64,000 nucleotides of DNA from assembly GCA_035999335.1 (NCBI GenBank), contig DASYGV010000086.1, forward strand, positions 66,991 through 130,990, given 5' to 3'. Each line of letters opens with the position of its first letter. Within the stretch, counting starts at the first letter, position 1. The notes beneath the pieces are model-generated. The model was given only the letters and a program-made list of their open reading frames with translations. It was not told where the DNA came from and did not search any database. Positions 5,017 to 55,835 of the stretch are shown here, piece by piece. The position numbers were made by a program, and so were the translations under genes. Source of the stretch: Thermoanaerobaculia bacterium (GTDB lineage: Bacteria > Acidobacteriota > Thermoanaerobaculia > Gp7-AA8).

Positions 5017-5400
5017 TTAGCTCCGCAGATGCGATCGGCCGGGTCGAGAAAGCGATTGATCTCTTCGACCAAGAGAGCTTTCTCTTCGACCAAGAAAGCT
5101 TTCTCTTCGATCAAAGAGATCCTTCCCTTCGATCAAGAGATCTTTCTCTTCGACCAAGAGAGCCTTCCCTTCGACCAAGAGATCTTTCCCTTCGACCAAG
5201 AGATCTTTCCCTTCGATCAAGAGATCTTTCCCTTCGATCAAGAGATCTTTCTCTTCGGGCAAGAGATCTTTATCTTCGTCAAAGAGATCTTTCTCTTCGT
5301 CAAAGGGATCGATCTTTTCATCGAAGAGATCGATGGCTTCGTCTCGGACCCCGTTTTCTTCCTGAAAGAGGTAGGAAAGTTGATCTTTCTCTTCGGGCAC
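5017..5400 (-). CDS. acidic heptad-repeat protein (…LLIEGKD LLVEGKD… x about 10), hypothetical
   Basis: The minus-strand frame through the 21-bp array gives a clean (EGKDLLV)n heptad repeat. It is co-oriented with, and immediately upstream of, the TIR gene, and starts 22 bp after the dedA stop. The plus-strand frames (FDQEIFP / RDLSLRS repeats) are less protein-like. Coding status is uncertain. Confidence 0.3.
   Translation of the reverse strand: MPEEKDQLSYLFQEENGVRDEAIDLFDEKIDPFDEEKDLFDEDKDLLPEEKDLLIEGKDLLIEGKDLLVEGKDLLVEGKALLVEEKDLLIEGKDLFDRRESFLGRRESSLGRRDQSLSRPGRSHLRS
5067..5340. repeat. 21-bp tandem repeat array, about 13 copies (consensus ttcgaccaagagatctttccc)
   Basis: Directly visible head-to-tail units with point variants. 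The period is 21 bp, which equals 7 codons and about two helical turns. Confidence 0.9.
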
Positions 5401-7595: not shown

Positions 7596-7690
7596 GGGCT
7601 GAAGAGTCGCAAAGTCGCAAAGTCTCAAAGTCGCAAAGAGGGCGGGTCCGACGGCCTTTGCGACTTTGCGACTTTGAGACTTTGCGACTC
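7596..7690. repeat. 35-bp-stem palindrome built from tandem 8-mers (gtcgcaaa x4 / tttgcgac x4)
   Basis: gagtcgcaaagtcgcaaagtctcaaagtcgcaaag - loop - ctttgcgactttgcgactttgagactttgcgactc. It overlaps the last codons of the CPBP protease gene (…ESQSLKVAKSQRP…). Confidence 0.85.
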
Positions 7691-13163: not shown

Positions 13164-13180
13164 GGGCGCGGATCATACAG

Positions 13181-13235
13181 TTGCGAGTTGCGGGTTGCGA
13201 GTGCCCTCGCAACTCGGAACTCGAAACTCAGACCA
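13181..13235. repeat. heptamer-built palindrome (gttgcga units)
   Basis: gagttgcgggttgcgag tgccc tcgcaactcggaactc. Intergenic between two minus-strand genes. Confidence 0.8.
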
Positions 13236-16244: not shown

Positions 16245-16261
16245 TTGTCGCTCCCTCCTTC

Positions 16262-16340
16262 AGGGCGCAGGGCGCAGGGCGCAGGGCGCAGAAGCTGACG
16301 GCTCTTCTGCGCCCTGCGCCCTGTCCCCTGTGCCCTGCTC
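16262..16340. repeat. heptamer-built palindrome (gggcgca units)
   Basis: cagggcgcagggcgcagggcgcagggcgcagaag - loop - cttctgcgccctgcgccctgtcccctgtgccctg. A related copy lies at 39985-40040. Confidence 0.85.
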
Positions 16341-39963: not shown

Positions 39964-39984
39964 GATCAGAGCGCGGAGGGCAAG

Positions 39985-40040
39985 GCGCAGGGCGCAGGAG
40001 AAAACGCTTCTGCGCCCTGTCCCCTGCGCCCTGCGCCCAG
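39985..40040. repeat. heptamer-built palindrome (ggcgcag units), relative of 16262-16340
   Basis: ggcaaggcgcagggcgcaggagaaaacgcttctgcgccctgtcccctgcgccctgcgccc. Confidence 0.8.
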
Positions 40041-41054: not shown

Positions 41055-41099
41055 GTCATGAGGGGTGCCAGGATTCACGACGTGAAGTGAGGTTTTCTC

Positions 41100-41215
41100 C
41101 GCGAAGCCTCTGTGTCCTCTGTGTCCCGGTGGTGAATCGGTCTCTTCATCCCGCGAGGGACATAGGAACTCACCACAGAGCCACCGAGCACACAGAGGCT
41201 TCGCGGAGAAAAGCT
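41100..41215. repeat. long imperfect palindrome (gcgaagcctctgtgtcctctgtgtcccggtggtga … tcaccacagagccaccgagcacacagaggcttcgc)
   Basis: About 35-bp arms with ctctgtgt units. It marks the left edge of the accessory segment. Confidence 0.8.
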
Positions 41216-45921: not shown

Positions 45922-46119
45922 TTCTGCATGGAGCCGAGATCCCGTTCAAGTGCCGGCGCGATTGTCTTGACGAATGCCAATCCATGACCGTCGGCATGAA
46001 GGTCAATAGGAGTACGAGTGGAAAGATCACTCCGAAGAAGCTTCCGACGATCACCCACTGCGCTCGTGAAAGACGTATGAGGCCGTTCATTCCGCCGTCC
46101 AATGGCCACGTGGACGGCG

Positions 46120-46725
46120 CTACAACCCGGCTTCGCAAACCGTTACAGCCTCTTCGTCGGTCATTTGCCGAGGATCCCTACCGTCACAGATATTGGCGCG
46201 AGTCTTCGGAGGCAAGGAGCGTAGTGTGCTGATTGTCCGTGCCGAATCCTCTTCAAGCAACCAGTCGAACGCCGGCCACGCCACCTCTCCAAGTTCGCCG
46301 TCGGTGAGCAGACACAGTTCGATGAATTCACGGTGGTAGCGTCCATGACGTTGAACGAGACGGGCAGCGGTGTCAAACATGTCATATATGGTTTCGGAGA
46401 CCGCGCGATGCTCGCAGACATCACGCGCATACGTGAGTTCGTAGATACGTTGCAACTCGATTCGTGTACGAGGAAGCGACCGAAGGTATCTCAACTCTTC
46501 GCGCCATGTCGGATTCAAGGACAAGCGTTGGTGTCGATAAAGCGCAACGATCCCGGGATTCATCGCCCAAATCCGGTTGAACGCGGCATCAAGCGCAGCG
46601 ACCGTCGATGCGTCACCGAGCGCCAAGATGGCTTCGTGAGGGATCGACGAGCCTGGACAGTCCGCCGCGATTGGCGAGGCAATGACAAGAGTAACGAAGA
46701 GCGAACAGGCCAGTCGATGTGTCAT
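46120..46725 (-). CDS. secreted hypothetical protein
   Basis: Start MTHRLACSLFVTLVIASPIAA (signal peptide). Lower GC (about 55%). Confidence 0.45.
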   Translation of the reverse strand: MTHRLACSLFVTLVIASPIAADCPGSSIPHEAILALGDASTVAALDAAFNRIWAMNPGIVALYRHQRLSLNPTWREELRYLRSLPRTRIELQRIYELTYARDVCEHRAVSETIYDMFDTAARLVQRHGRYHREFIELCLLTDGELGEVAWPAFDWLLEEDSARTISTLRSLPPKTRANICDGRDPRQMTDEEAVTVCEAGL

Positions 46726-46878
46726 GGAATCCTTGATTGCGCCTGCGCCGCCCAACTCCGTCATGAGCCGATTAGACGTACCGCTTGAAATCGCTAAACA
46801 CGGAACGCGATTGCTGCGCTTCGTACGTGCTCAACTGACGGCACACGCTCATCTTACCTCCGGTGATGGCTCTCCGCG

Positions 46879-48426
46879 TCACCCCCGGCTGAAGCCGAGG
46901 CTGAAGCCGGGGGCTAGGAGAACTTCTTCCGCGGCGCGCACGCCGTGGTGGAGCGCTTCCTCGAACAGCGCGACTCCGCTGAGGTCCGTGTTTGCGAAGT
47001 GAATTGCGCCGTGCGGTTCGGACGCGCGGCGGCGCGCGTCGCTCCAGATGAAGCCAGGGCGCGGGCGGATCATCGCGTGGCCCCAGCGCATGACGTCGAC
47101 GCGTTCGGTGAGCGCGCGGATGTCGGGATGCGCGCGCGACAGGTCCGCGAGCGCGACCTCCGCCCATGCGTCGCGGCCCGCGGCGAGGAGCCGCTCGCGC
47201 TCGCGGCGCACGTCGCTGCCGCAGAGCGCGTAGTAATACGTCAGCACCGTCGGTCCGCGGTCGATGCCGCGCTGGTGCGTCGAGACGACGTAGCCGAGGG
47301 AGGGGCTGTCGTAGAGGACGTTGTCCCACGCGAGCGGAAATCCGTGCGACACCGGACGATCGCGCAACGCGAGATTCGCCACCATCCACGAGCCGTAGGT
47401 GAAGTCATTCGACGTCTCGCGTGTCGGAATCGCGTGCCGCGCAACGAACTGCGGTCCCGCGAAGATCACCTGTCTGGCGTGCACACCCACTGCCTCGTCG
47501 CCATGCACCGCGATCACGTCGCCGTTCGGAGCGATGTTCGTGACGAGCCAACCCGTGCGCGATTGTGCGAATTGGGCGAGATGCGCGACCACGCGCCCGT
47601 TCCCTTCTGGCCAGGTGATGAAAGCACGCTGCTCGCGTGAGGCGAAGTAGAAGACCGCCGCCCAGGCGCTCGTGTCGCCGAGGAGCGCGCCGTAGTCGTC
47701 GCGCGTCGCGTATTCGACGAGCCAGCGCAATCGCGGTGAGGTGAAGCCGCGCGCGTCCATCCATTCGTTCATGGAGATGCGATCGAGCGCCGTCACCTCC
47801 GCGTCGTCCGAACAGAGCGCGACCGGGATGTCGAACGCGCGGCGTCCGCGCGCATCGCGCCACGCCGACCATCGCGCGATCTCGGCCTCGAACGCACGCA
47901 GCTGGCGCAGGTCTTCGTGCGACGCGCCCGCGTTCAGGTAGAGACCCTCGTACCAGCGCCCGCGATAGAACACGCGCTCCTGAGGATCGCGGCAGAGGAA
48001 CTGCTCGGCGATCTCGCCGTTCTCGAGCACGCCCATTTCATCGAGCAACCGGATCAGCACGCGATTCTCGGGCGATGGCGCGACGATGTAGTGAGCGCCC
48101 CACGGGTACGACGTACCGCTGCGCGAAGTGCCTCCCAGTGCGGGCTCGAGCTCGAAGAGCACGACGTCGCGAACGCCCGCGTGGTGGAGATGCCACGCAG
48201 CGGCGAGTCCGGCGATGCCGCCACCGGCGATGACGACGTCGTGCGTCTCCCACCGCGACGGTTGCGGAATCACGCCGCCGCGCAGGCGATGTCCGATGCG
48301 ATCCGAAGCGCCGACCAACTCGCCCGGCGGCAGCGCGATCTCGCGCTCGCGACATGCCAGCGCCGCGAACGGCGCGCCGAGGAACGCCGTCAGCACGTCG
48401 CGGCGGCTCAGCTCCACTTGCGCCAC
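46879..48426 (-). CDS. FAD-dependent oxidoreductase (amine-oxidase/protoporphyrinogen-oxidase-like) with Tat-type signal
   Basis: [18 protein letters not shown] twin-Arg signal. [18 protein letters not shown]-binding GxGxxG. Confidence 0.75.
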
Positions 48427-49904
48427 TCGTCTTCGTAATACCGCACGAGCATCTGGTTATCGAGGCGGTTGATCTCGACGGGCACCGGCAACATGTCGCG
48501 CGGAAAGACGAACATCGCCGCGAGCGTCGACTCGTCGAGAAAACGCGACGGCACGGTGACGCGCGACGGCGCGTCGAACGGCCGCGGCGCCGCGAGCGCG
48601 AAGCCCCACACGCCGAACGACGGCACGGTCGTGTGATACGGACGCACGTGCCATCCCGCGGCTTCCATCGTCCGCACGATGCACCAGTACGAGCGCCGCG
48701 CGTACAACGGCGACGTCGACTGCACGGACACCGCGCCGTCCGGCGCGAGACGCGCGCGCAACAGGCGATAAAAGCGCGTCGAGTAGAGCTTGCCGAGGGA
48801 GAACGAGCTCGGGTCGGGGAAATCGACGATCGCGACGTCAAACGTGTCCCGCACGCCCTCGATCCAGATCATCGCGTCCTGGTTCACGACGCGCACGCGC
48901 GGATCGCGGAACGCGTGACCGTTCAGCGCGCCGAGCGGCAGGAAGCGTTCCGACAGCGCGGTCATCTTCGGATCGAGATCGACCAGCGTCACGTGCTCGA
49001 CGGCGCGATACTTCAGCACCTCTCGCAACGCGAGCCCGTCTCCGCCGCCAAGGACCAGCACGCGCCGCGGCGATCGCGCTGCCGACATCGCCGGATGCAC
49101 GAGCGCCTCGTGATAGCGGTATTCGTCCGCGGAGCTGAACTGCAGGTTCCCGTTCAGGAAGAGCTGGAACCCCGCGGCGTTGTTCGTGACGAGGATGCGC
49201 TGATACGGAGAGCTCGTCGAATACACGATGTCGTCGGCGTACAGCTCGTCTTCGGCGAGAGAGGTGAGCTTGTCGGATTGGACGAATGCGACCAATAGGA
49301 CGGATAGGACCAATAGGGCGCGTATACGCAGAACCATCACGCCGCGCAGCAATGGACGCAGGAGCCACGTGCCGTACAGCCCTACCACGGCGTTGAGCAG
49401 TCCGAAGACGATCGACGTCCGCACCAGTCCGAGGCGCGGCATGAAGAACATCGGGAAGAGCACCGCCGCGAAGAGCGAGCCGATGTAGTCGAAGCTCAGC
49501 ACGCGCGACACGAGCTCCTTGAAGTCGAGATGCTCTTTGAGGATGCGCATCAGGATCGGGAGCTCGAGCCCGACCAGCACGCCGATCGCGAAGACGACGA
49601 GGAAGAGAAAAAGCCGGAACCACTCCAGCCGCGAGAAGCCGAGGAAGAGCATCGGCGCGGAGAGCCCGCCGATCAGCGCGACCGCGAGCTCGACGTCGAC
49701 GAACCGCGCCGCGAGATCGCGCTCGAGAAATCGCGACAGCCAAGCGCCCACGCCCAACGCCGACAGATACAACCCGATGATGAGCGAGAACTGCGTGACC
49801 GAATCGCCGAGGACATAACTCGCCACCGTCCCCGCAAGCAACTCGTAGATCAGGCCGCAGGCGGCGATCACGAGGACGTTGAGGAAGAGGATGGGAGTGC
49901 GGTT
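48408..49904 (-). CDS. speE: membrane-anchored polyamine aminopropyltransferase (SpeE-like, N-terminal about 7-TM domain)
   Basis: C-terminal spermidine-synthase fold ([18 protein letters not shown]…[10 protein letters not shown]…[11 protein letters not shown]) after a about 200-aa polytopic N-terminal domain. A GTG start at 49904 is preferred over the ATG at 49958, which would read through the palindrome. Confidence 0.8.
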
Positions 49905-49980
49905 CACAGTGATGAGTGATGAGTGATGAGTGATGAGTGGCAGAGCGCCGTTCAGCACTCATCACTCATCACTCATCACT
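49905..49980. repeat. heptamer-built palindrome (gtgatga x4 / tcatcac x4)
   Basis: cagtgatgagtgatgagtgatgagtgatgagtgg - loop - cactcatcactcatcactcatcac. Confidence 0.85.
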
Positions 49981-49988
49981 ACTTCACG

Positions 49989-50207
49989 TTACCCGTGCAG
50001 CGCCGCCGCGATGATGATCGCCAGGCCGAGGATCACCGAGGCCATCAGGATCGCGAGCGCCGTGTTGTGGTCGGCCTCGATCTCCTTGGTGATCGAGAAC
50101 GGCGAGATCTTCACCATCGCCCAATACGCCACGGCGAAGACGATCACGCCGAAAACCGTGTAGCCCACCGTGCTGAGAAACGTCCGCAGAGCTGGAACGA
50201 GATCCAT
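49989..50207 (-). CDS. DUF350-family small membrane protein
   Basis: 72 aa with two TM helices. ITKEIEADHNTALAILMASVILGLAIIIAAAL matches the DUF350 core (N.A.AI…G..LG.AI). Confidence 0.6.
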   Translation of the reverse strand: MDLVPALRTFLSTVGYTVFGVIVFAVAYWAMVKISPFSITKEIEADHNTALAILMASVILGLAIIIAAALHG

Positions 50208-50380
50208 CACTTGCCTCCTCGATATCCGCCGTACCAGAACACACCCGTGTGCGCGCCGCGCACGCCCCCGGGCGCGATTCGCGTCTTCGCCCGCGACATC
50301 TCCAGGCCGCGCACGCCCGCGTACGCGTACCCGCCGATGATCAGCAGCCCGACCAGAACGTAGAGCGCTCTCGCCATTTG

Positions 50381-52311
50381 CTACTCCTCTTCCTCGTCTT
50401 CGTCTTCCGAGTGCGCGGCGCCGGCCGGCGAGAACGAGCTCTCCGCCCAACGACGCGATTCGAACACCGCCTGCCGGATCACCGCAAAGAACGGAATGAT
50501 GCTGATCGCGATCAGCGCCAGCACGAAATGCAGTCCGCGGAACACGCCTTCGCGCACACGGATGTGCACCTGCGAGGGCGGACTCTTTCCGCCTTCCCAG
50601 TGCGCTTCGACGCGCAGCACGTGCGGTCCCTTCTTCGGAGCGGAGAGGAACATCCTCCGCGTGTGCTTTCCTTCACTCCAGCTCTCGCCGCCATCCACTC
50701 CGCTGTAGTACTCCAGCGGGATCTCGAACGACTTCAACCGCCCGTCGCTCTCATCGACGAGGTCGACGCCGAGATGGAGCCAGTTGTTTTGGAGAGGCGA
50801 GCTCGCGCGCACTTCGACGTTGTGTCTGCCCGTGAGCTCGAACGGTTGCGTGAAAAACACGCGCGCGGCCTCGACGTTCCAGTCGGGCGCGGCGACAGCG
50901 CCGAGATCGAACATCTGATCGACGAGCAGGCGCTGGGGCCGCGTCATCGAAATGAAAACCGCCGCCACGAACAGCAGCGCCAGCATCGCCAGCCACGCGA
51001 GGCCGAGTCGCGCGCCCGAATACGGCTGGATCGGTCCGACTCCCGAGGGGCGGACGAGCTTCTCGATGCCGAACGCCTGCTCGACCTCGCGAGGCTCCAT
51101 GTAACGCGCGTGCGAGTAGCTGATCTCCTGCGCGCCTTCGCGCGTCAGCTCCTTCGAGATCCCGAACGGCGGGGCAACGTAGTCGACCGTGTCGACCTGC
51201 TCCCCCACCGCCACCTTCCAGTAGAACTCTCCGAGGACGTGCGTCACGCGCGCGAGCGCGGTCTGGAAGACTTTGTACGTGCGGCCGTCGTACTTCACCG
51301 TCTTCGCCGCGCCGCGCGGACTCACGTCGTCGACGTCGCCCGGACGCAGCGGCGTCACGAAGCTCCAGTGATCGTCGCTGTGCACGAGCCAGCGATAACT
51401 CTTCTCGCGGTTGTAGAGGAGATATTCGGTCCAGAAGTAATCGCGGTCGAAGCGCACCGCGCGCTCCATGAAACCCGCGACGACGTATGCGTCGCCGTCG
51501 ATGGTGCCAGTGGAACCGAGAGGGATCACCGGTTGCGTCTTCGACGGCTTCAGCTTCTGGAAGAACTGCAGCTTCCCGTCCGCGATGTCGTGACCCGCGC
51601 CGCAGTACGGACACCAGATGCGCTCCGCCCGATCGGGCGCGCGCAGCTCGAGCGCGCCGCCGCACTGCGAGCAGTTGAGGGTGGTCAGCTTCGCGCGCGC
51701 TTCACGCCGCGCCTCGCCGCCCTCGATCTGCAGCGCGTCGAGCGGGACTTCCTCTCCCTTGAAAACGACCGCGGGCTCTTCGCTGTAGTCGATGGTCGCG
51801 AACTTCCGTTCGGCCCCGCTGAGGTCCGCGTACTCGTAGCGCGCGCCGGCGTTCGGCGTCCAGGGCAGTTCGCCTTCGGCGGAGATCAGCGCGGCTTCGC
51901 CGATCTCGGCGACGACGAGGCTGTCGAGCACGCGGTCGCCGACGCGCAACGCGTCGAACGGAGGCGCCTCCTGCGCAACCTTGAACGTGACGTAGAACCT
52001 CCCCTGCGCCTCGGCCAGCCACGCCCAACGTCCGTCATCGAGCGCCGCGTACCACTCGTCCCACACGCCGCCGGCCTGATGGCGGAGCTGCGTTCTTCCG
52101 GTGATCCGGAAGGACTGGCGGCGGTACTTCCCGCTTGCGCCGACGCGCAGCGGCGAGCCGGTGTCGATGAGCGCCGCGACCTTGCCGTGGTCTTCGATAC
52201 CGCGATCGGTGCGCGCCACGATCGAGCGGCAGGACGAGCACACCACGACCTCGGACGATCCGATCGCAAACTCGATCTGCGCACCGCAGGACGGGCAGTT
52301 CGCCGTCGTCA
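50381..52311 (-). CDS. DUF4178-domain protein (two tandem zinc-ribbon + DUF4178 modules, a TM helix, and an acidic C-terminal tail)
   Basis: CPSCGAQIEF…CSSC…GRTQLRHQAGGVWDEWY…DGRWAWL, repeated as CSQCGGALE…CPYCGA…W.EY.L…YRWL. Start trimmed to a GTG near 52311. Confidence 0.6.
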
Positions 52312-52653
52312 CCGTCCGCGCTCCACCTTGCGCACGCGCACGTCCCGCGCGCCGAGGAGCGCGGCCAGACGCTCCTCCCACGGCCAGTCGGGACGCGGGC
52401 GACAGCAATAGAGATTGATGGTGGCGATCCCGTGCTCGGGATAGGTGTGACACGCGAGGTGCGACTCCGTGAGCATCACGAAGCCGGTGACGCCGGCGTG
52501 CCCCGGAAAGACGTGCCACGCGGGCGCGTGCAGCGGCTGCAGGTTCAGCTCGCCGATGACGCTGGCGAAGAGGCCGCCGAGGACTTCGACGTCCCGCAAC
52601 GAGTCCGCATCACACCCGCCAGCCTCGACCAGCCACTCTGCACCGATTTCCAT
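52309..52653 (-). CDS. speH: S-adenosylmethionine decarboxylase proenzyme (small, SpeH-type)
   Basis: AGVTGFVMLTESHLACHTYPEHGIATINLYCC contains the ES (serine) autoprocessing site and the PE..G/TCG-like motifs of class-1 AdoMetDC. Confidence 0.8.
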   Translation of the reverse strand: MEIGAEWLVEAGGCDADSLRDVEVLGGLFASVIGELNLQPLHAPAWHVFPGHAGVTGFVMLTESHLACHTYPEHGIATINLYCCRPRPDWPWEERLAALLGARDVRVRKVERGR

Positions 52654-52686
52654 GGGCGGGGGAAAGGATACAAGATTCATTCAGTT

Positions 52687-52793
52687 TATCCCGCGCGTAG
52701 ACGCGGGATCTCCGGTCATCCCGGCAGAGACTGCTGCCATGGCACGGATCGTCGCGAGGGCACCGGAGATCCCGCGTCTACGCGCGGGATAAA
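52687..52793. repeat. 31-bp perfect inverted repeat pair with 44-bp spacer in divergent promoter region
   Basis: ttatcccgcgcgtagacgcgggatctccggt … accggagatcccgcgtctacgcgcgggataa. Confidence 0.85.
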
Positions 52794-52847
52794 CTACAGG
52801 TCGATTTCCACGTACTATTGCTCGTCACACGGAGGTCACATACAGCC

Positions 52848-53972
52848 ATGGGACTTTGGGACGCAATCAAGAACGAGTTCATCCAGATCATCGAGTGGCT
52901 CGATGACAGCAACAACACCCTGGTCTACCGGTTCCCGGTGCACGAGCAGGAGATCAAGATGGGCGCGCAGCTCACCGTGCGCGAGAACCAGGTCGCCATC
53001 TTCATCAACGAAGGGCAGGTGGCGGACCTCTTCAAGCCCGGCCGCTACGAGCTCTCCACGCAGAACATGCCCATCATGACGACGCTGCGGAGCTGGAAGT
53101 ACGGCTTCGACTCGCCGTTCAAGGCCGAGGTCTACTTCTTCAACACGCGGCTGTTCACGGATCTGAAGTGGGGCACGTCGAACCCGGTGATGATGCGCGA
53201 CGCCGAGTTCGGGATGATCCGCATGCGGGCGTTCGGAACATACGCGATCCGCATCGCCGACGCGAAGGAGTTCTTCAAAACCGTCGTCGGCACGCAGGGT
53301 CTCACGACCACCGAAGACATCCTCGTGCAGCTCCGCTCGACGATCATCAGCCATCTGTCCGACATCATCGCGGAGTCGAAGATCGCGGCGCTGGATCTCG
53401 CGTCCAGCTACCGCGAGCTGTCGACTCTCGCGCAAAAGGAGCTCGCGCCGTCGTTCACCACATTCGGGCTCGAGCTCGCGCGCTTCAACATCGACAACGT
53501 CTCGCTCCCCGAGGAAGTGGAAGCCGCGATCGACCAGCGCACGAAGCTCGGCGTCCTCGGCGACCGCATGAGTCAGTACACGCAGATGCAGGCCGCGGAC
53601 TCGATCAAGATCGCGGCGGCGAACGAAGGCGGTATCGCCGGCGCGGGCGTCGGCCTCGGCGCGGGCGTGGCGATGGGTCAAGCGATGAGTGGAGCGTTCA
53701 ACGCGCCTCCGCCGCCGCAGGGCGCGTCCGCGCCTCCGCCTCCTCCGGGTGGTGCGGCGAACGCGCCACGCTGGTCGATCGCGATCGACGGCAAGACGTA
53801 CGGCCCCTACACGGATGACGCGCTGAAGACGATGGTCCAAAGCGGACAGGTCGCCGCTTCGACACAGGCCTGGCGCCCTGGCGCCAGCGGCTGGGCGTCG
53901 CTCGACACGTATTCGGAGCTGGGCCTCGGCGGCGGAAGCGCGATGCCGCCACCACCGCCACCACCGAAGTAG
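52848..53972 (+). CDS. SPFH/Band-7 family protein (Band_7_1, YdjI-like) with C-terminal DUF4339 (GYF-like) domain and poly-Pro linker
   Basis: The N-terminal 260 aa match the virion-core-like SPFH family. The C-terminus WSIAIDGKTYGPYTDDALKTMVQSGQVAASTQAWRPGASGWASL is DUF4339-like. Confidence 0.75.
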   Translation: MGLWDAIKNEFIQIIEWLDDSNNTLVYRFPVHEQEIKMGAQLTVRENQVAIFINEGQVADLFKPGRYELSTQNMPIMTTLRSWKYGFDSPFKAEVYFFNTRLFTDLKWGTSNPVMMRDAEFGMIRMRAFGTYAIRIADAKEFFKTVVGTQGLTTTEDILVQLRSTIISHLSDIIAESKIAALDLASSYRELSTLAQKELAPSFTTFGLELARFNIDNVSLPEEVEAAIDQRTKLGVLGDRMSQYTQMQAADSIKIAAANEGGIAGAGVGLGAGVAMGQAMSGAFNAPPPPQGASAPPPPPGGAANAPRWSIAIDGKTYGPYTDDALKTMVQSGQVAASTQAWRPGASGWASLDTYSELGLGGGSAMPPPPPPPK

Positions 53973-53974
53973 TT

Positions 53975-54050
53975 CGACGTTGCGAGTTGCGAGTTGCGAG
54001 CGCCTCTTGGCGTTTCGCGCTCGCAACTCGTAACCCGCAACTCGCAAGAT
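53975..54050. repeat. heptamer-built palindrome (gttgcga units)
   Basis: gttgcgagttgcgagttgcgagcgcctcttggcgtttcgcgctcgcaactcgtaacccgcaactcgcaa. Confidence 0.85.
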
Positions 54051-55128
54051 GTCTGCAGAAGCCATCCAGTCCAAGGTCCGCAAGTTCCCCTGCGAAGGCT
54101 GCGGTGCGGACCTCGCGTGGGAGCCAGGCATCACCGCGCTCAAGTGCCCGTGGTGCGGCATGTCGAAAGACGTCGCACCGGCCGGCGGTACCGTCGACGA
54201 GAAATCCGTCGATGCCGGTCTCCGCGCGCCGCGCAACCTCGGATGGGGCGCGGAGCGCAAGGTCATCGCCTGCAAGCGCTGCGGCGCGCACACGACACTC
54301 GATCCTCACGTGGCCGCGAGCGCGTGCGCGTTCTGCGGCACGAACGCGGTCGTCGAAGCGCCGCCGGACAAGACCATCGCGCGTCCCGAGGGACTCCTGC
54401 CGTTCCGCATCACTCGCGAGTCGGCGCTGCAATCGTTCCGCGCCTGGCTGCACAAGCTGTGGCTCCGTCCCAATGACCTCAAACGCTCCGCGCGGATGAA
54501 CGTCATCCAGGGCGCGTACATCCCCTTCTGGACCTTCGATGCCGCAACGCATTCGAGTTGGACCGCCGAAGCGGGTTACTACTACTACGTCGACGTGAAT
54601 TCCGGAGGACAACGGCGGCGCGAACGCCGCATCCGATGGGAGCCCGCCTCCGGATCGCTGGAGCATTTCTTCGACGACGTGCCCATCCCAGCATCGCGCG
54701 GCATCGACTCGTCGCTCACCCGCGGGATCGAGCCGTTTCCCACCGCCGAGCTCACGCCTTACCAGCCGTCGTACCTTTCGGGATTCCTCGCCGAAGAGAA
54801 CGCGGTCGACTTGCCGGAGGCGCTCGAGAGCGCGAAGGACCGGATGCGCGACGAGCTTCGCTACATGTGCTCGCGGCGCGTCCCCGGCGACACGCAGCGC
54901 AACCTCGTCGTGCACACCGTCTTCTCCGCCCTCGCGTACAAAAACTGCCTCCTCCCGATCTGGGTCGCCGCCTACGACTACCACGGCAAGCCCTACCGCT
55001 TCCTCGTGAACGGCGTCACCGGCAAATGCCACGGCACCGCGCCCTGGTCGTGGGTGAAGATCACGCTGCTGGTGATGACGATCCTGACGATCGCGATGGT
55101 CGTGCTGTGGGCGATGGGACAGGCGTGA
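54049..55128 (+). CDS. zinc-ribbon membrane-anchored protein (YdjG-like partner of the SPFH protein)
   Basis: CEGCGA…CPWCG and CKRCGA…CAFCG double zinc ribbons; a C-terminal TM helix (ITLLVMTILTIAMVVLWAM). Confidence 0.5.
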   Translation: MSAEAIQSKVRKFPCEGCGADLAWEPGITALKCPWCGMSKDVAPAGGTVDEKSVDAGLRAPRNLGWGAERKVIACKRCGAHTTLDPHVAASACAFCGTNAVVEAPPDKTIARPEGLLPFRITRESALQSFRAWLHKLWLRPNDLKRSARMNVIQGAYIPFWTFDAATHSSWTAEAGYYYYVDVNSGGQRRRERRIRWEPASGSLEHFFDDVPIPASRGIDSSLTRGIEPFPTAELTPYQPSYLSGFLAEENAVDLPEALESAKDRMRDELRYMCSRRVPGDTQRNLVVHTVFSALAYKNCLLPIWVAAYDYHGKPYRFLVNGVTGKCHGTAPWSWVKITLLVMTILTIAMVVLWAMGQA

Positions 55129-55835
55129 AGAAGTTGCAACTCGCATCCGTCCGCAAAGACCTCCGTACCGCCGCCAACCCCGAACACGCCAAAGTCGCAC
55201 AATCCTTCTTCAAAACCGCCCCCGGCCAATATGGCGAAGGCGATCGCTTTCTCGGCATTCGCGTTCCTGTATTACGAACGTTCGTGCGAAAACACGAAAC
55301 GCTTTCATTGCAAGACATTGAGACCCTTCTCGACTCTCCATGGCACGAGGAGCGGATCGTCGCGTTGCTGATTCTCGTCCGACGCTATGAGCGCGGCGAC
55401 GATACCGATCGCGCTGCCATTTACGACCTCTATCTGCGCAAGACGGAACGCATCAATAACTGGGATCTGGTCGACTGCTCCGCGCCGCAGATCGTCGGCG
55501 CGCATCTGCGCGATCGCGACCGCGCCCCTCTGTACGCTCTCGCCAAATCGAGCTCATTGTGGGAACGGCGGATTGCGATGATCGCGACGCAGCACTTCAT
55601 CCGCCGAGGCGATTTCCGCGACGCGCTGGCCATCGCCGCGCTCCTGCTCGACGACCGCCACGACCTCATTCACAAAGCGGCCGGCTGGATGCTCCGCGAG
55701 GTCGGGAATCGGGATCGAGAAGCCGAGGAGAGGTTCCTGCGGAAACACGCCGCGCGCATGCCGCGCACCATGCTCCGTTACGCAATCGAGAAATTTCCCG
55801 CCACATTGCGCAGGACGTATCTCGAAATACGTTGA
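55127..55835 (+). CDS. DNA alkylation repair enzyme (AlkD/AlkC-like HEAT-repeat glycosylase family)
   Basis: GTG start overlapping the previous stop (GTGA). …WHEERIVALLIL…NNWDLVD…LWERRIAMIATQHFIRRG matches the AlkD-family HEAT-like repeats. Confidence 0.65.

Follow-up and report, generated by a model that had tools for sequence, protein, structure and literature searches.

A conserved gene cluster around a membrane-fused aminopropyltransferase in a Thermoanaerobaculia genome, and its possible role in extracytoplasmic aminopropylation

The DNA analysed here is a stretch of 64,000 nucleotides from a Thermoanaerobaculia bacterium (Acidobacteriota; assembly GCA_035999335.1, contig DASYGV010000086.1, positions 66,991 to 130,990), referred to below as the window. 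Its minus strand carries a tightly packed gene cluster in which a spermidine-synthase-type enzyme (SpeE) fused to an N-terminal transmembrane (TM) domain, here called TM-SpeE, is accompanied by an S-adenosylmethionine decarboxylase (AdoMetDC), a DUF4178 protein, a DUF350 protein and a flavin adenine dinucleotide (FAD) enzyme of the amine-oxidase superfamily (Table 1). All five open reading frames (ORFs) had been listed in a first-pass annotation made from the letters of the window, and all are present. Its domain assignments hold throughout: in profile searches with Pfam-A at curated cut-offs and with NCBIfam, five of five Pfam assignments exceed their cut-offs, and NCBIfam places TM-SpeE among the membrane-fused aminopropyltransferases. 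Two of its gene starts have to be moved. The DUF4178 gene begins at GTG 52312 rather than 52311 and overlaps the AdoMetDC stop (GTGA), and the TM-SpeE gene begins at GTG 49907 rather than 49904, which yields 499 aa, the length of a 100%-identical NCBI protein from a Thermoanaerobaculia metagenome-assembled genome. The AdoMetDC start at 52653 matches the called gene in a relative of 88% identity (locus L082), and ATG 52680 is an alternative start that would give 123 aa. The gene list itself was incomplete, as it missed a sixth gene between those for the DUF4178 and DUF350 proteins and a Band-7 partner on the other strand. The stop of this small sixth gene, which is preceded by GAGGAAGAGGAG, overlaps the ATG of the DUF350 gene, and the start of the oxidase gene overlaps the end of the TM-SpeE gene by 19 nt. 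Between DUF350 and TM-SpeE lies a gap of 81 nt that is occupied by a hairpin; the same two genes are 1 nt apart in L082.

Table 1. Features of the cluster and its surroundings in the window (L081 and L082 are loci of a Bryobacteraceae genome and of the 88%-identical relative)
Feature	Coordinates	Strand	Basis or details
AdoMetDC proenzyme, class 1b (SpeH/SpeD-type), 114 aa	52309..52653	-	PF02675, 1TLU/1VR7 alignment, L082 gene call
DUF4178 protein, 643 aa	50381..52312	-	two Zn-ribbon + DUF4178 modules, TM 431-459, beta-sandwich, TM 588-618, acidic tail
Small single-TM protein, 56 aa, MARALYVLVGLLIIGGYAYAG...	50207..50377	-	sequence reading, family HMM, gene calls in L081 and L082
DUF350 (YjfL-family) membrane protein, 72 aa, two TM	49989..50207	-	PF03994; phmmer with E. 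coli YjfL
AGTGATG hairpin, DUF350-SpeE gap	49908..49980	.	inverted-repeat detection
TM-SpeE enzyme, 499 aa: half of a major facilitator superfamily (MFS) fold (TM1-6) + TM7 + linker helix + aminopropyltransferase domain	48408..49907	-	
FAD amine-oxidase-superfamily enzyme, 515 aa, twin-arginine signal	46879..48426	-	PF01593, RR motif
Band_7_1 (SPFH) + GYF_2 protein	52848..53972	+	PF13421, GYF_2
359-aa protein, two Zn ribbons + C-terminal TM helix (333-359)	54049..55128	+	weak Zn-ribbon Pfam matches
34-nt perfect inverted repeat, arms 52683-52716 and 52762-52795	52683..52795	.	AdoMetDC / Band-7 intergenic region

A search of 1.84 billion representative proteins with TM-SpeE retrieved 1,467 clusters at E-values up to 1e-30, and most of the best 150 of these 1,467 are full-length fusions. 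Through an alignment of 84 diverse members and the window protein, 80 genome loci were fetched, which span Acidobacteriota, Myxococcota, Planctomycetota, Burkholderiales, Competibacteraceae, Bacteroidota, Bdellovibrionota, Melainabacteria and Leptospira. The recurring order on one strand is (Band-7)-AdoMetDC-DUF4178-small ORF-DUF350-TM-SpeE-oxidase. Of the loci from other species, 48 have sufficient DNA to either side; in 32 of these 48, the DUF4178, DUF350, SpeE and oxidase genes share one strand, and AdoMetDC is nearby in 27 of the 32. This clustering exceeds chance, and the conservation of gene order outside this genome, which the first-pass annotation had set as a check on its proposal, is thus found across phyla. 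The Bryobacteraceae genome has eight genes, including Band_7_1, in one tight operon, with DUF4178 split into two genes. Lone TM-SpeE loci and pairs of SpeE and oxidase without the accessory genes likewise occur. Searches with the E. coli proteins (phmmer) found no homologues of PspA, YjfI, YjfK or YjfC in the 80 loci. Within 8 kb of the orthologous gene in L082, no called gene encodes PspA either, and the PspA/IM30 protein that defines a classical phage-shock-protein locus is lacking there.

The whole set, in a rearranged form, is present on a megaplasmid of Ralstonia solanacearum (AP024104.1; L085 1-10169, L086 2331-4380). One strand carries DUF350 in a four-TM form, a Band-7/SHOCT protein, a twofold DUF4178, a 61-aa protein and AdoMetDC, and the other strand carries a five-gene ABC importer, TM-SpeE ('speE1') and an amino oxidase. 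Ralstonia, a genetically tractable plant pathogen, accounts for 120 of the 138 plasmid records with a match.

TM-SpeE matches Spermine_synth (PF01564) with 135.6 bits and is a full-length member of the NF002956 / PRK03612 family (674.2 bits against a cut-off of 472, model positions 20-521 of 522), an equivalog that NCBIfam names 'polyamine aminopropyltransferase'. It has the architecture of that family, a multi-pass N-terminal TM domain followed by the SpeE fold, and does not reach the models of canonical SpeE (TIGR00417, 151.5 against 249.55; NF002010, 183.4 against 260). Motif conservation was scored in 85 sequences, the window protein and the 84 diverse members. Q256, the DExxYHE residues D261, E262, Y265, H266 and E267, the GGGDG at 287-291, D310 and D312, D344, and D362 and D365 of a D-x-P-D motif are invariant or at least 90% conserved, and the catalytic domain contains a DFPDP motif. 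D290, at the acidic position of GxG(D/E)G, is among the residues conserved in at least 90%. An acidic residue at this position marks users of decarboxylated S-adenosylmethionine (dcAdoMet), in contrast to S-adenosylmethionine (SAM) methyltransferases of the same fold (PMC10349129). By its motifs, TM-SpeE is an aminopropyl-transfer enzyme of the dcAdoMet type that keeps all aminopropyltransferase motifs; we assign it to this type because of the Asp in GGGDG and because the cluster has its own AdoMetDC. The nearest solved relatives of the catalytic domain are SpeE of Thermus thermophilus (1UIR, the closest), spermidine synthase of Synechococcus (6QMM) and thermospermine synthase (6BQ2). Conservation extends into the TM helices, in which the acidic residues E22, E115 and D140 are retained among the 85 homologues.

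AdoMetDC scores 81 bits against AdoMet_dc (PF02675; cut-off 25) and 65.8 against the B. subtilis-type equivalog TIGR03330, under the cut-off of 75.65. Enzymes of this kind are recognised by a self-processing Glu-Ser site and a catalytic His and Cys (S63, H68 and C83 in T. maritima), and neofunctionalised SpeD homologues that act on arginine or ornithine exist (PMC10407285). Alignment to the T. maritima structures 1TLU/1VR7 indicates that the window protein keeps the cleavage site and both residues, as ...TESHLACH...YCC..., and it is predicted on these motifs to decarboxylate S-adenosylmethionine (AdoMet) to dcAdoMet. As it has no signal peptide, it is expected to be cytoplasmic.

The TM part of TM-SpeE corresponds to one MFS half of six helices followed by a seventh helix, as judged from a search of the PDB with a structure model; its structural neighbours include LtaA, SPNS2 and Spns1, though all MFS proteins score alike. 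The mean number of Lys and Arg per loop alternates (2.33, 0.18, 2.35, 0.18, 2.29, 0.78, 3.09) in the 85 homologues, and the loop charges favour a cytoplasmic N-terminus (N-in) in 85 of 85. MFS halves begin and end in the cytoplasm. Together, the N-in orientation, the six-helix MFS half and the seventh helix strongly suggest that the aminopropyltransferase domain is periplasmic. The predicted Tat signal of the oxidase, described below, would agree with this placement. With AdoMetDC lacking a signal peptide and its product made in the cytoplasm, dcAdoMet would need to cross the membrane. SpeE enzymes dimerise, and two MFS halves brought together in a dimer are the obvious candidate for a dcAdoMet conduit. 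In an MFS half, TM1, TM4 and TM5 line the central cavity, where E22, E115 and D140 would fall.

The oxidase matches Amino_oxidase (PF01593) over its full length with 72.8 bits. The first-pass annotation had proposed a twin-arginine signal, and this is borne out: the motif SRRDVL is followed by a hydrophobic h-region and Cys25, and an RR motif recurs in 46 of the 49 homologues, most of them with a lipobox-like Cys (LAAC/LSAC/LAGC-type) after it. The enzyme is thus probably a lipoprotein exported by the twin-arginine translocation (Tat) pathway, as far as can be judged from its N-terminus. It resembles solved MAO-B, putrescine oxidase and Fms1 only at the FAD-binding N-terminus. The oxidases of the cluster (residues ~30-60 in the window protein; homologues in L003-L080) also share a segment P-x-G-E-I/L-V-G-x-S...G-H-x-L-R-D/G-G. 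It sits between the Tat signal and Cys on one side and GxGxxG on the other, outside the part that matches the solved amine oxidases, and is possibly a family-specific element for binding a substrate or partner.

The DUF4178 protein matches PF13785 (107 bits) over two stretches, and a Zn ribbon precedes each of them. The two modules had been recognised before; the protein has two TM helices rather than the single one proposed, and the domain between them had been missed. This conserved beta-sandwich domain of ~130 aa, with the motif YYxGVDxGESWSEG, is predicted to be periplasmic and the two Zn-ribbon/DUF4178 modules cytoplasmic, and the second helix is followed by a conserved FExxRWxESxF motif and the acidic tail. 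The DUF350 protein scores 46.8 bits against PF03994 (cut-off 26), and E. coli YjfL matches the DUF350 orthologues of the loci. The Band-7 protein, divergent from the operon in the window, scores 309.7 bits against PF13421 and 48.5 bits against GYF_2. A Band-7 homologue lies co-directionally upstream of SpeE in 12 of the 53 loci with enough upstream DNA, directly upstream of AdoMetDC in the Bryobacteraceae locus, and beside DUF350 and DUF4178 in Ralstonia. The single eight-gene operon of Bryobacteraceae indicates that Band-7 is part of the system, and the window protein is therefore likely a partner of the module.

The small protein consists of one TM helix and a Gly/Arg/aromatic tail ending ...GYRGGK. 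A hidden Markov model (HMM) built from the 18 first matches was searched against the loci that have a DUF4178-DUF350 interval; it detects the protein in that interval in 48 of 59 loci, and seven more were recognised by eye. Gene callers annotate it in L081 and L082 (56-59 aa, no Pfam), no Pfam or NCBIfam model matches it, and for eight diverse small proteins tested there is no match to DUF1190 (PF06693-type) at E-values up to 5. Its last residue is Lys in 54 of 54 scored proteins, 46 of which end ...GGK. GGK closes only 53 of the 12,533 ORFs (25 aa or longer) of the 80 loci, and 46 of these 53 lie just upstream of SpeE; as a background, a terminal Lys is seen in 5.5% of 620 coupled ORF pairs from the same loci. 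Seven Burkholderiales loci have no separate small gene, and there the tail is fused to the DUF4178 protein, in which two Zn-ribbon/DUF4178 modules precede a single TM helix and then a Gly/Ser/Tyr tail that contains Cys and ends ...GG(S/G)HK. This fusion links the small protein functionally to the DUF4178 protein, and as the tail follows a single TM helix, opposite the Zn-ribbon part, it would be periplasmic. The 61-aa protein of Ralstonia, which has AdoMetDC as its next gene instead of DUF350, still ends ...GGHK. We considered the terminal Lys as a by-product of translational coupling and rejected this: both Lys codons occur, AAA and AAG (27 to 22), whereas AAY does not. The residue is likewise kept where the Shine-Dalgarno sequence lies past the stop (...FHK, ...YHK), in the seven fused proteins, and in Ralstonia with its different next gene.

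The cluster of AdoMetDC, membrane SpeE, DUF350, DUF4178, Band-7 and oxidase has been described before (Ravi et al. 2024; Li et al. 2019, so far as later papers relay it), and the window locus is a Thermoanaerobaculia member of it. Its function is reported as unsolved in the literature to December 2025, in line with the first-pass annotation, which had called it not established. The clusters of Li, Kurihara, Kim, Liang and Michael (2019; Biochem J 476:2579), as portrayed in papers that cite them, contain the same enzyme pair and the DUF350 neighbour; as far as those papers show, periplasmic orientation, the architecture of half an MFS fold plus TM7, and the Lys-terminated small protein are not discussed there. 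In the operons of Ravi et al. (2024, mSystems; PMC11237479), a '7TM transporter-like' SpeE fusion is joined by YjfL/DUF350, DUF4178 and, just upstream of DUF350, a 'LipoSIG + Ctha_1186 + low-complexity' protein; in a further variant, to which AdoMetDC and polyamine oxidase are added, Band-7 takes the place of the CesT/Tir-PspA dyad. The same authors cite Li et al. for 'aminopropylation of other substrates'. The window matches the Band-7 variant gene for gene, with co-directional AdoMetDC, DUF4178, DUF350, TM-SpeE and amine oxidase and an adjacent Band-7, without PspA. In contrast to the operons of Ravi et al., PspA and CesT/Tir are absent from the window locus and the 80 related loci, in which we found no PspA, CesT or ATP-grasp partners of the module. 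Moreover, Band-7 in the window carries GYF_2 and not 2TM + SHOCT (the SHOCT form occurs in Burkholderiales and Ralstonia), and DUF4178 is duplicated and has the predicted periplasmic domain. Soluble aminopropyltransferases such as SpeE of Thermus thermophilus (1UIR/3ANX) differ in being cytoplasmic, without a TM domain and unlinked to DUF350, DUF4178 or the oxidase.

Two further systems invite comparison. The link between DUF350, E. coli yjfL and a glutathionylspermidine-synthetase homologue, which the first-pass annotation had drawn, is correct: in E. coli yjfIJKLMC and ygiBC, the DUF350 protein YjfL is found near membrane-anchored DUF1190 proteins (YjfM, YgiB) with a Gly/Arg/aromatic low-complexity tail and near the peptide--spermidine ligases YjfC and YgiC (Pederick et al. 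2023). The chemistry differs, since YjfC and YgiC ligate free spermidine by an ATP-grasp mechanism, whereas the window enzyme would transfer aminopropyl groups from dcAdoMet. YjfM and YgiB end in Gly-Gly and the small protein of the window in Lys, and DUF1190 and the small protein share no sequence homology. The outcome could still be comparable, namely a peptide that carries a polyamine-like end, and YjfC/YgiC, whose physiological substrate is also open, provide a biochemical precedent for joining polyamine moieties to peptides near DUF350. At the yjfM-yjfC junction of E. coli K-12 (L083 6014-6031), the terminal Gly-Gly codons GGA GGC form the GGAGG Shine-Dalgarno sequence of the downstream ligase gene; at the ygiB-ygiC junction (L084 2404-2424) the Gly-Gly end is encoded by the weaker GGT GGC. 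What looks like a C-terminal 'motif' where genes are translationally coupled can therefore be a signal at the nucleotide level. A recognition motif shared between the Gly-Gly ends of YjfM/YgiB and the ...GGK ends was rejected as evidence, since the Gly codons form the Shine-Dalgarno sequence of the next gene (the weaker GGTGG in ygiB).

The other system is the fungal NHMT (A. nidulans AN4663; Batth et al. 2023, PMC10349129), in which seven TM helices precede a transferase of the spermidine synthase fold, as in the window enzyme; the likeness is one of architecture and of a statement in the literature. NHMT is located in the endoplasmic reticulum, methylates secreted lytic polysaccharide monooxygenases and requires its TM domain (PMC10349129). 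It has Ile at the acidic position of GxG(D/E)G and methylates with SAM, whereas the window enzyme has Asp290 and so lacks the mark of an NHMT-type methyltransferase. Bacterial fusions are the only non-fungal homologues of a fungal membrane-aminopropyltransferase-like fusion (P. oryzae), according to PMC12803844 (Michael lab, 2025), and this P. oryzae protein and AN4663 presumably belong to one family. An enzyme built in this way that modifies proteins outside the cytoplasm has a working precedent in NHMT.

The explanation we favour for these observations, tentatively and at somewhat less than an even chance, is that the cluster encodes an envelope-facing, that is extracytoplasmic, aminopropylation module. 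The cytoplasmic class-1b AdoMetDC would make dcAdoMet, and in a TM-SpeE dimer the two MFS halves would form a full MFS-like conduit, passing the dicationic dcAdoMet outward via E22, E115 and D140. The periplasmic SpeE domain would then aminopropylate an acceptor other than putrescine. A candidate is the epsilon-amine of the terminal Lys of the 56-aa protein, which would acquire a membrane-tethered, polyamine-like end; among the candidates encoded in the operon this Lys appears the most likely, and we take it as a possible though doubtful acceptor. The Tat-exported FAD (lipo)protein, translationally coupled to the transferase, may oxidise the product and thereby remove or convert it, and the DUF4178, DUF350 and Band-7 proteins could form a scaffold or sensor that ties the modification to membrane-stress machinery. 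In its most specific form this amounts to an undescribed and genetically templated protein modification, in which the aminopropyl group of exported dcAdoMet is placed on the epsilon-amine of a C-terminal Lys (on the tail of the DUF4178 protein in Burkholderiales) and the oxidase subsequently removes or converts it; this we consider rather doubtful as a whole. In its carbon skeleton Lys is cadaverine with a carboxyl added, so that its modification would yield a tethered tail resembling aminopropylcadaverine. A membrane-associated polyamine-like product on which a periplasmic oxidase acts, as initially suggested for this locus, is compatible with these findings; the predicted periplasmic position of the aminopropyltransferase domain had gone unrecognised.

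Several observations weigh against this explanation or its parts. While gene content, conservation, folds, intact motifs, the Tat motif and the conserved Lys are shown by computation, the topology is inferred, if strongly, and so are the passage of dcAdoMet, the acceptor (weakly) and the roles of the oxidase and of the accessory proteins. In the structure model, DSSP joins TM5 and TM6 into one helix (129-182); the conserved P157/G160 turn, the charge pattern and the MFS superposition favour two helices. The flank charges of the free small protein are ambiguous, favouring a C-out orientation in 34 of 54. The 'GG' before its terminal Lys is confounded by the GGAGG Shine-Dalgarno sequence of the next gene (codon -3 is GGA, and GGA-GGN occurs in 41 of 49), and the Gly codons carry the Shine-Dalgarno sequence in Ralstonia too. 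Loci with a lone TM-SpeE or with SpeE and oxidase have no small protein, DUF4178 or DUF350 nearby (L034, L045, L047, L053, L065, L062, L070, L072), and the small protein is therefore not a universal acceptor unless it is encoded elsewhere. Its terminal Lys could also have another role, in analogy to the C-terminal Lys of Braun's lipoprotein, which attaches covalently to peptidoglycan. The equivalent of D365 in canonical SpeE, the second Asp of DxxDP, binds the distal amine of the diamine; a free diamine suits the conserved D365 better than does Lys, which has a carboxylate as its distal group. Furthermore, the ABC importer with a binding protein that adjoins the enzyme in Ralstonia hints at a small-molecule product, and the superfamily of the oxidase also holds enzymes of lipophilic substrates (HpnE, CrtI, PPOX).

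Some of these points lead to an alternative that retains the outward enzyme and takes as acceptor a free periplasmic diamine or polyamine (putrescine, cadaverine, agmatine, 1,3-diaminopropane). An envelope-localised polyamine would result, turned over by the oxidase, with the other proteins as regulators or sensors. The canonical acceptor-side motif is complete, including conserved D362 and D365, the nearest solved relatives are 1UIR, 6QMM and 6BQ2, and pairs of SpeE and oxidase do without the small protein (L062, L070, L072). Surface-localised spermidine is known from P. aeruginosa (work cited in PMC11107197), and in Ralstonia the importer with its periplasmic binding protein lies directly upstream of the enzyme. 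A free acceptor does not, however, account for the conservation of the terminal Lys or for its fusion to DUF4178. In addition, the abstract of the 2019 study reportedly states that the AdoMetDCs are active, that spermidine is absent from such species and that the fusion does not complement E. coli speE. We consider the free-diamine acceptor unlikely on balance. That the acceptor is instead the amine of an outer-leaflet lipid head group (phosphatidylethanolamine or an amino-lipid) seems to us less likely again, and distinctly improbable. Such remodelling of surface charge would explain a stress link with PspA/Band-7, one or the other of which recurs with the cluster; the enzyme sits in the membrane and has conserved polar residues in its TM helices, the neighbours of its TM domain include lipid-handling MFS proteins (LtaA, SPNS2, Spns1), and the oxidase, probably anchored to the membrane, comes from a superfamily some of whose members act on lipophilic substrates. 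Yet all MFS proteins score alike, so that this similarity is generic, and specific evidence for a lipid is absent. D365 suggests a cationic distal group and not a phosphate, and here too the Lys-terminated protein finds no explanation.

The most conventional reading, an ordinary cytoplasmic operon for spermidine or long-chain polyamines in which SpeE is simply anchored to the membrane, is disfavoured, and we hold it to be very improbable. An AdoMetDC beside a SpeE-fold enzyme with all catalytic motifs would be expected of such an operon, and the equivalog name given by NCBIfam points the same way. The enzyme stays, however, under the cut-offs of canonical SpeE (e.g., TIGR00417), the topology predictions place the domain outside, and the TM domain is conserved at polar positions and hence no simple anchor. 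In L082, the genes called within 8 kb of the orthologous gene include no arginine decarboxylase, ornithine decarboxylase or agmatinase, and bacterial fusions have been shown experimentally to be uninvolved in spermidine or spermine synthesis (PMC12803844).

Outside the cluster proper, the 359-aa protein with two Zn ribbons adjoins Band-7 in L082 too and has homologues in L004 and L009; it is a possible further partner, on weak grounds. Band_7_1 + GYF_2, this protein and a DNA_alkylation repair protein follow one another at 52848-55835, in an order that is the same in L082. The ydj PspA operon of B. subtilis has a Band-7 + Zn-ribbon protein and the double-Zn-ribbon TM protein YdjG (Ravi et al. 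2024; PMC11237479), and the Band-7 / Zn-ribbon TM pair of the window resembles these genes by description only.

The hairpin in the DUF350-SpeE gap is built of tandem AGTGATG repeats followed by their reverse complement (an inverted repeat of 34 nt at 91% or of 25 nt at 100%) and abuts the GTG of SpeE. Because it is absent from the 88%-identical L082, we interpret it as a lineage-specific insertion outside the conserved system; such elements are gained and lost. It belongs to a family of hairpins in the window (7604-7690, 13179-13228, 16261-16337, 39971-40036, 49908-49980 and 53979-54041), whose arms are tandem repeats of 7-8 nt (3 to 4.6 copies) followed by reverse-complement repeats. The repeat unit varies by site (AGTCGCAA, AGTTGCG, CAGGGCG, AGTGATG, GTTGCGA), and the two copies checked are both intergenic. 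A further inverted repeat, at 41095-41210, has arms that are not clearly tandem repeats. The perfect 34-nt inverted repeat between AdoMetDC and Band-7 has a spacer of 45 nt and is the sole copy in the window, and each of its arms contains a palindrome of its own (CCCGCG...CGCGGG). A riboswitch or leader RNA was rejected: when 46000-55500 was scanned against Rfam by E-value, the hairpins, this inverted repeat included, had no more than miRNA-like matches below threshold. No sigma-70 promoter-like sites were found, and intrinsic terminator-like sites occur at the frequency expected from shuffled sequence. The strongest tandem repeat of the window is an array at 5060-5331 with a 21-nt unit (TCTCTTCGACCAAGAGATCTT; 12.9 copies, 86% matches, Tandem Repeats Finder score 332).

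Thousands of bacteria, including Ralstonia solanacearum and presumably Mycobacterium tuberculosis with Rv2597-Rv2601, spend AdoMet on a pathway of unknown product, a question that was posed in 2019 and was still open in December 2025. On the ordinary reading, the window would merely add one more instance to a catalogued, uncharacterised cluster. What is added here are specific, testable predictions: a catalytic domain that faces outward, the passage of dcAdoMet, and an acceptor tail that ends in Lys. A periplasmic catalytic domain would require dcAdoMet to cross the membrane, which to our knowledge has not been described for any bacterium and which would explain why cytoplasmic complementation assays failed. 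If the terminal Lys is indeed the acceptor, the cluster would represent a new post-translational modification that links polyamine chemistry to envelope-stress systems (PspA, Band-7). It would then be the long-sought 'polyamine-independent role' of AdoMetDC, and the aminopropyl-transfer counterpart of the peptide--spermidine ligase systems of E. coli.

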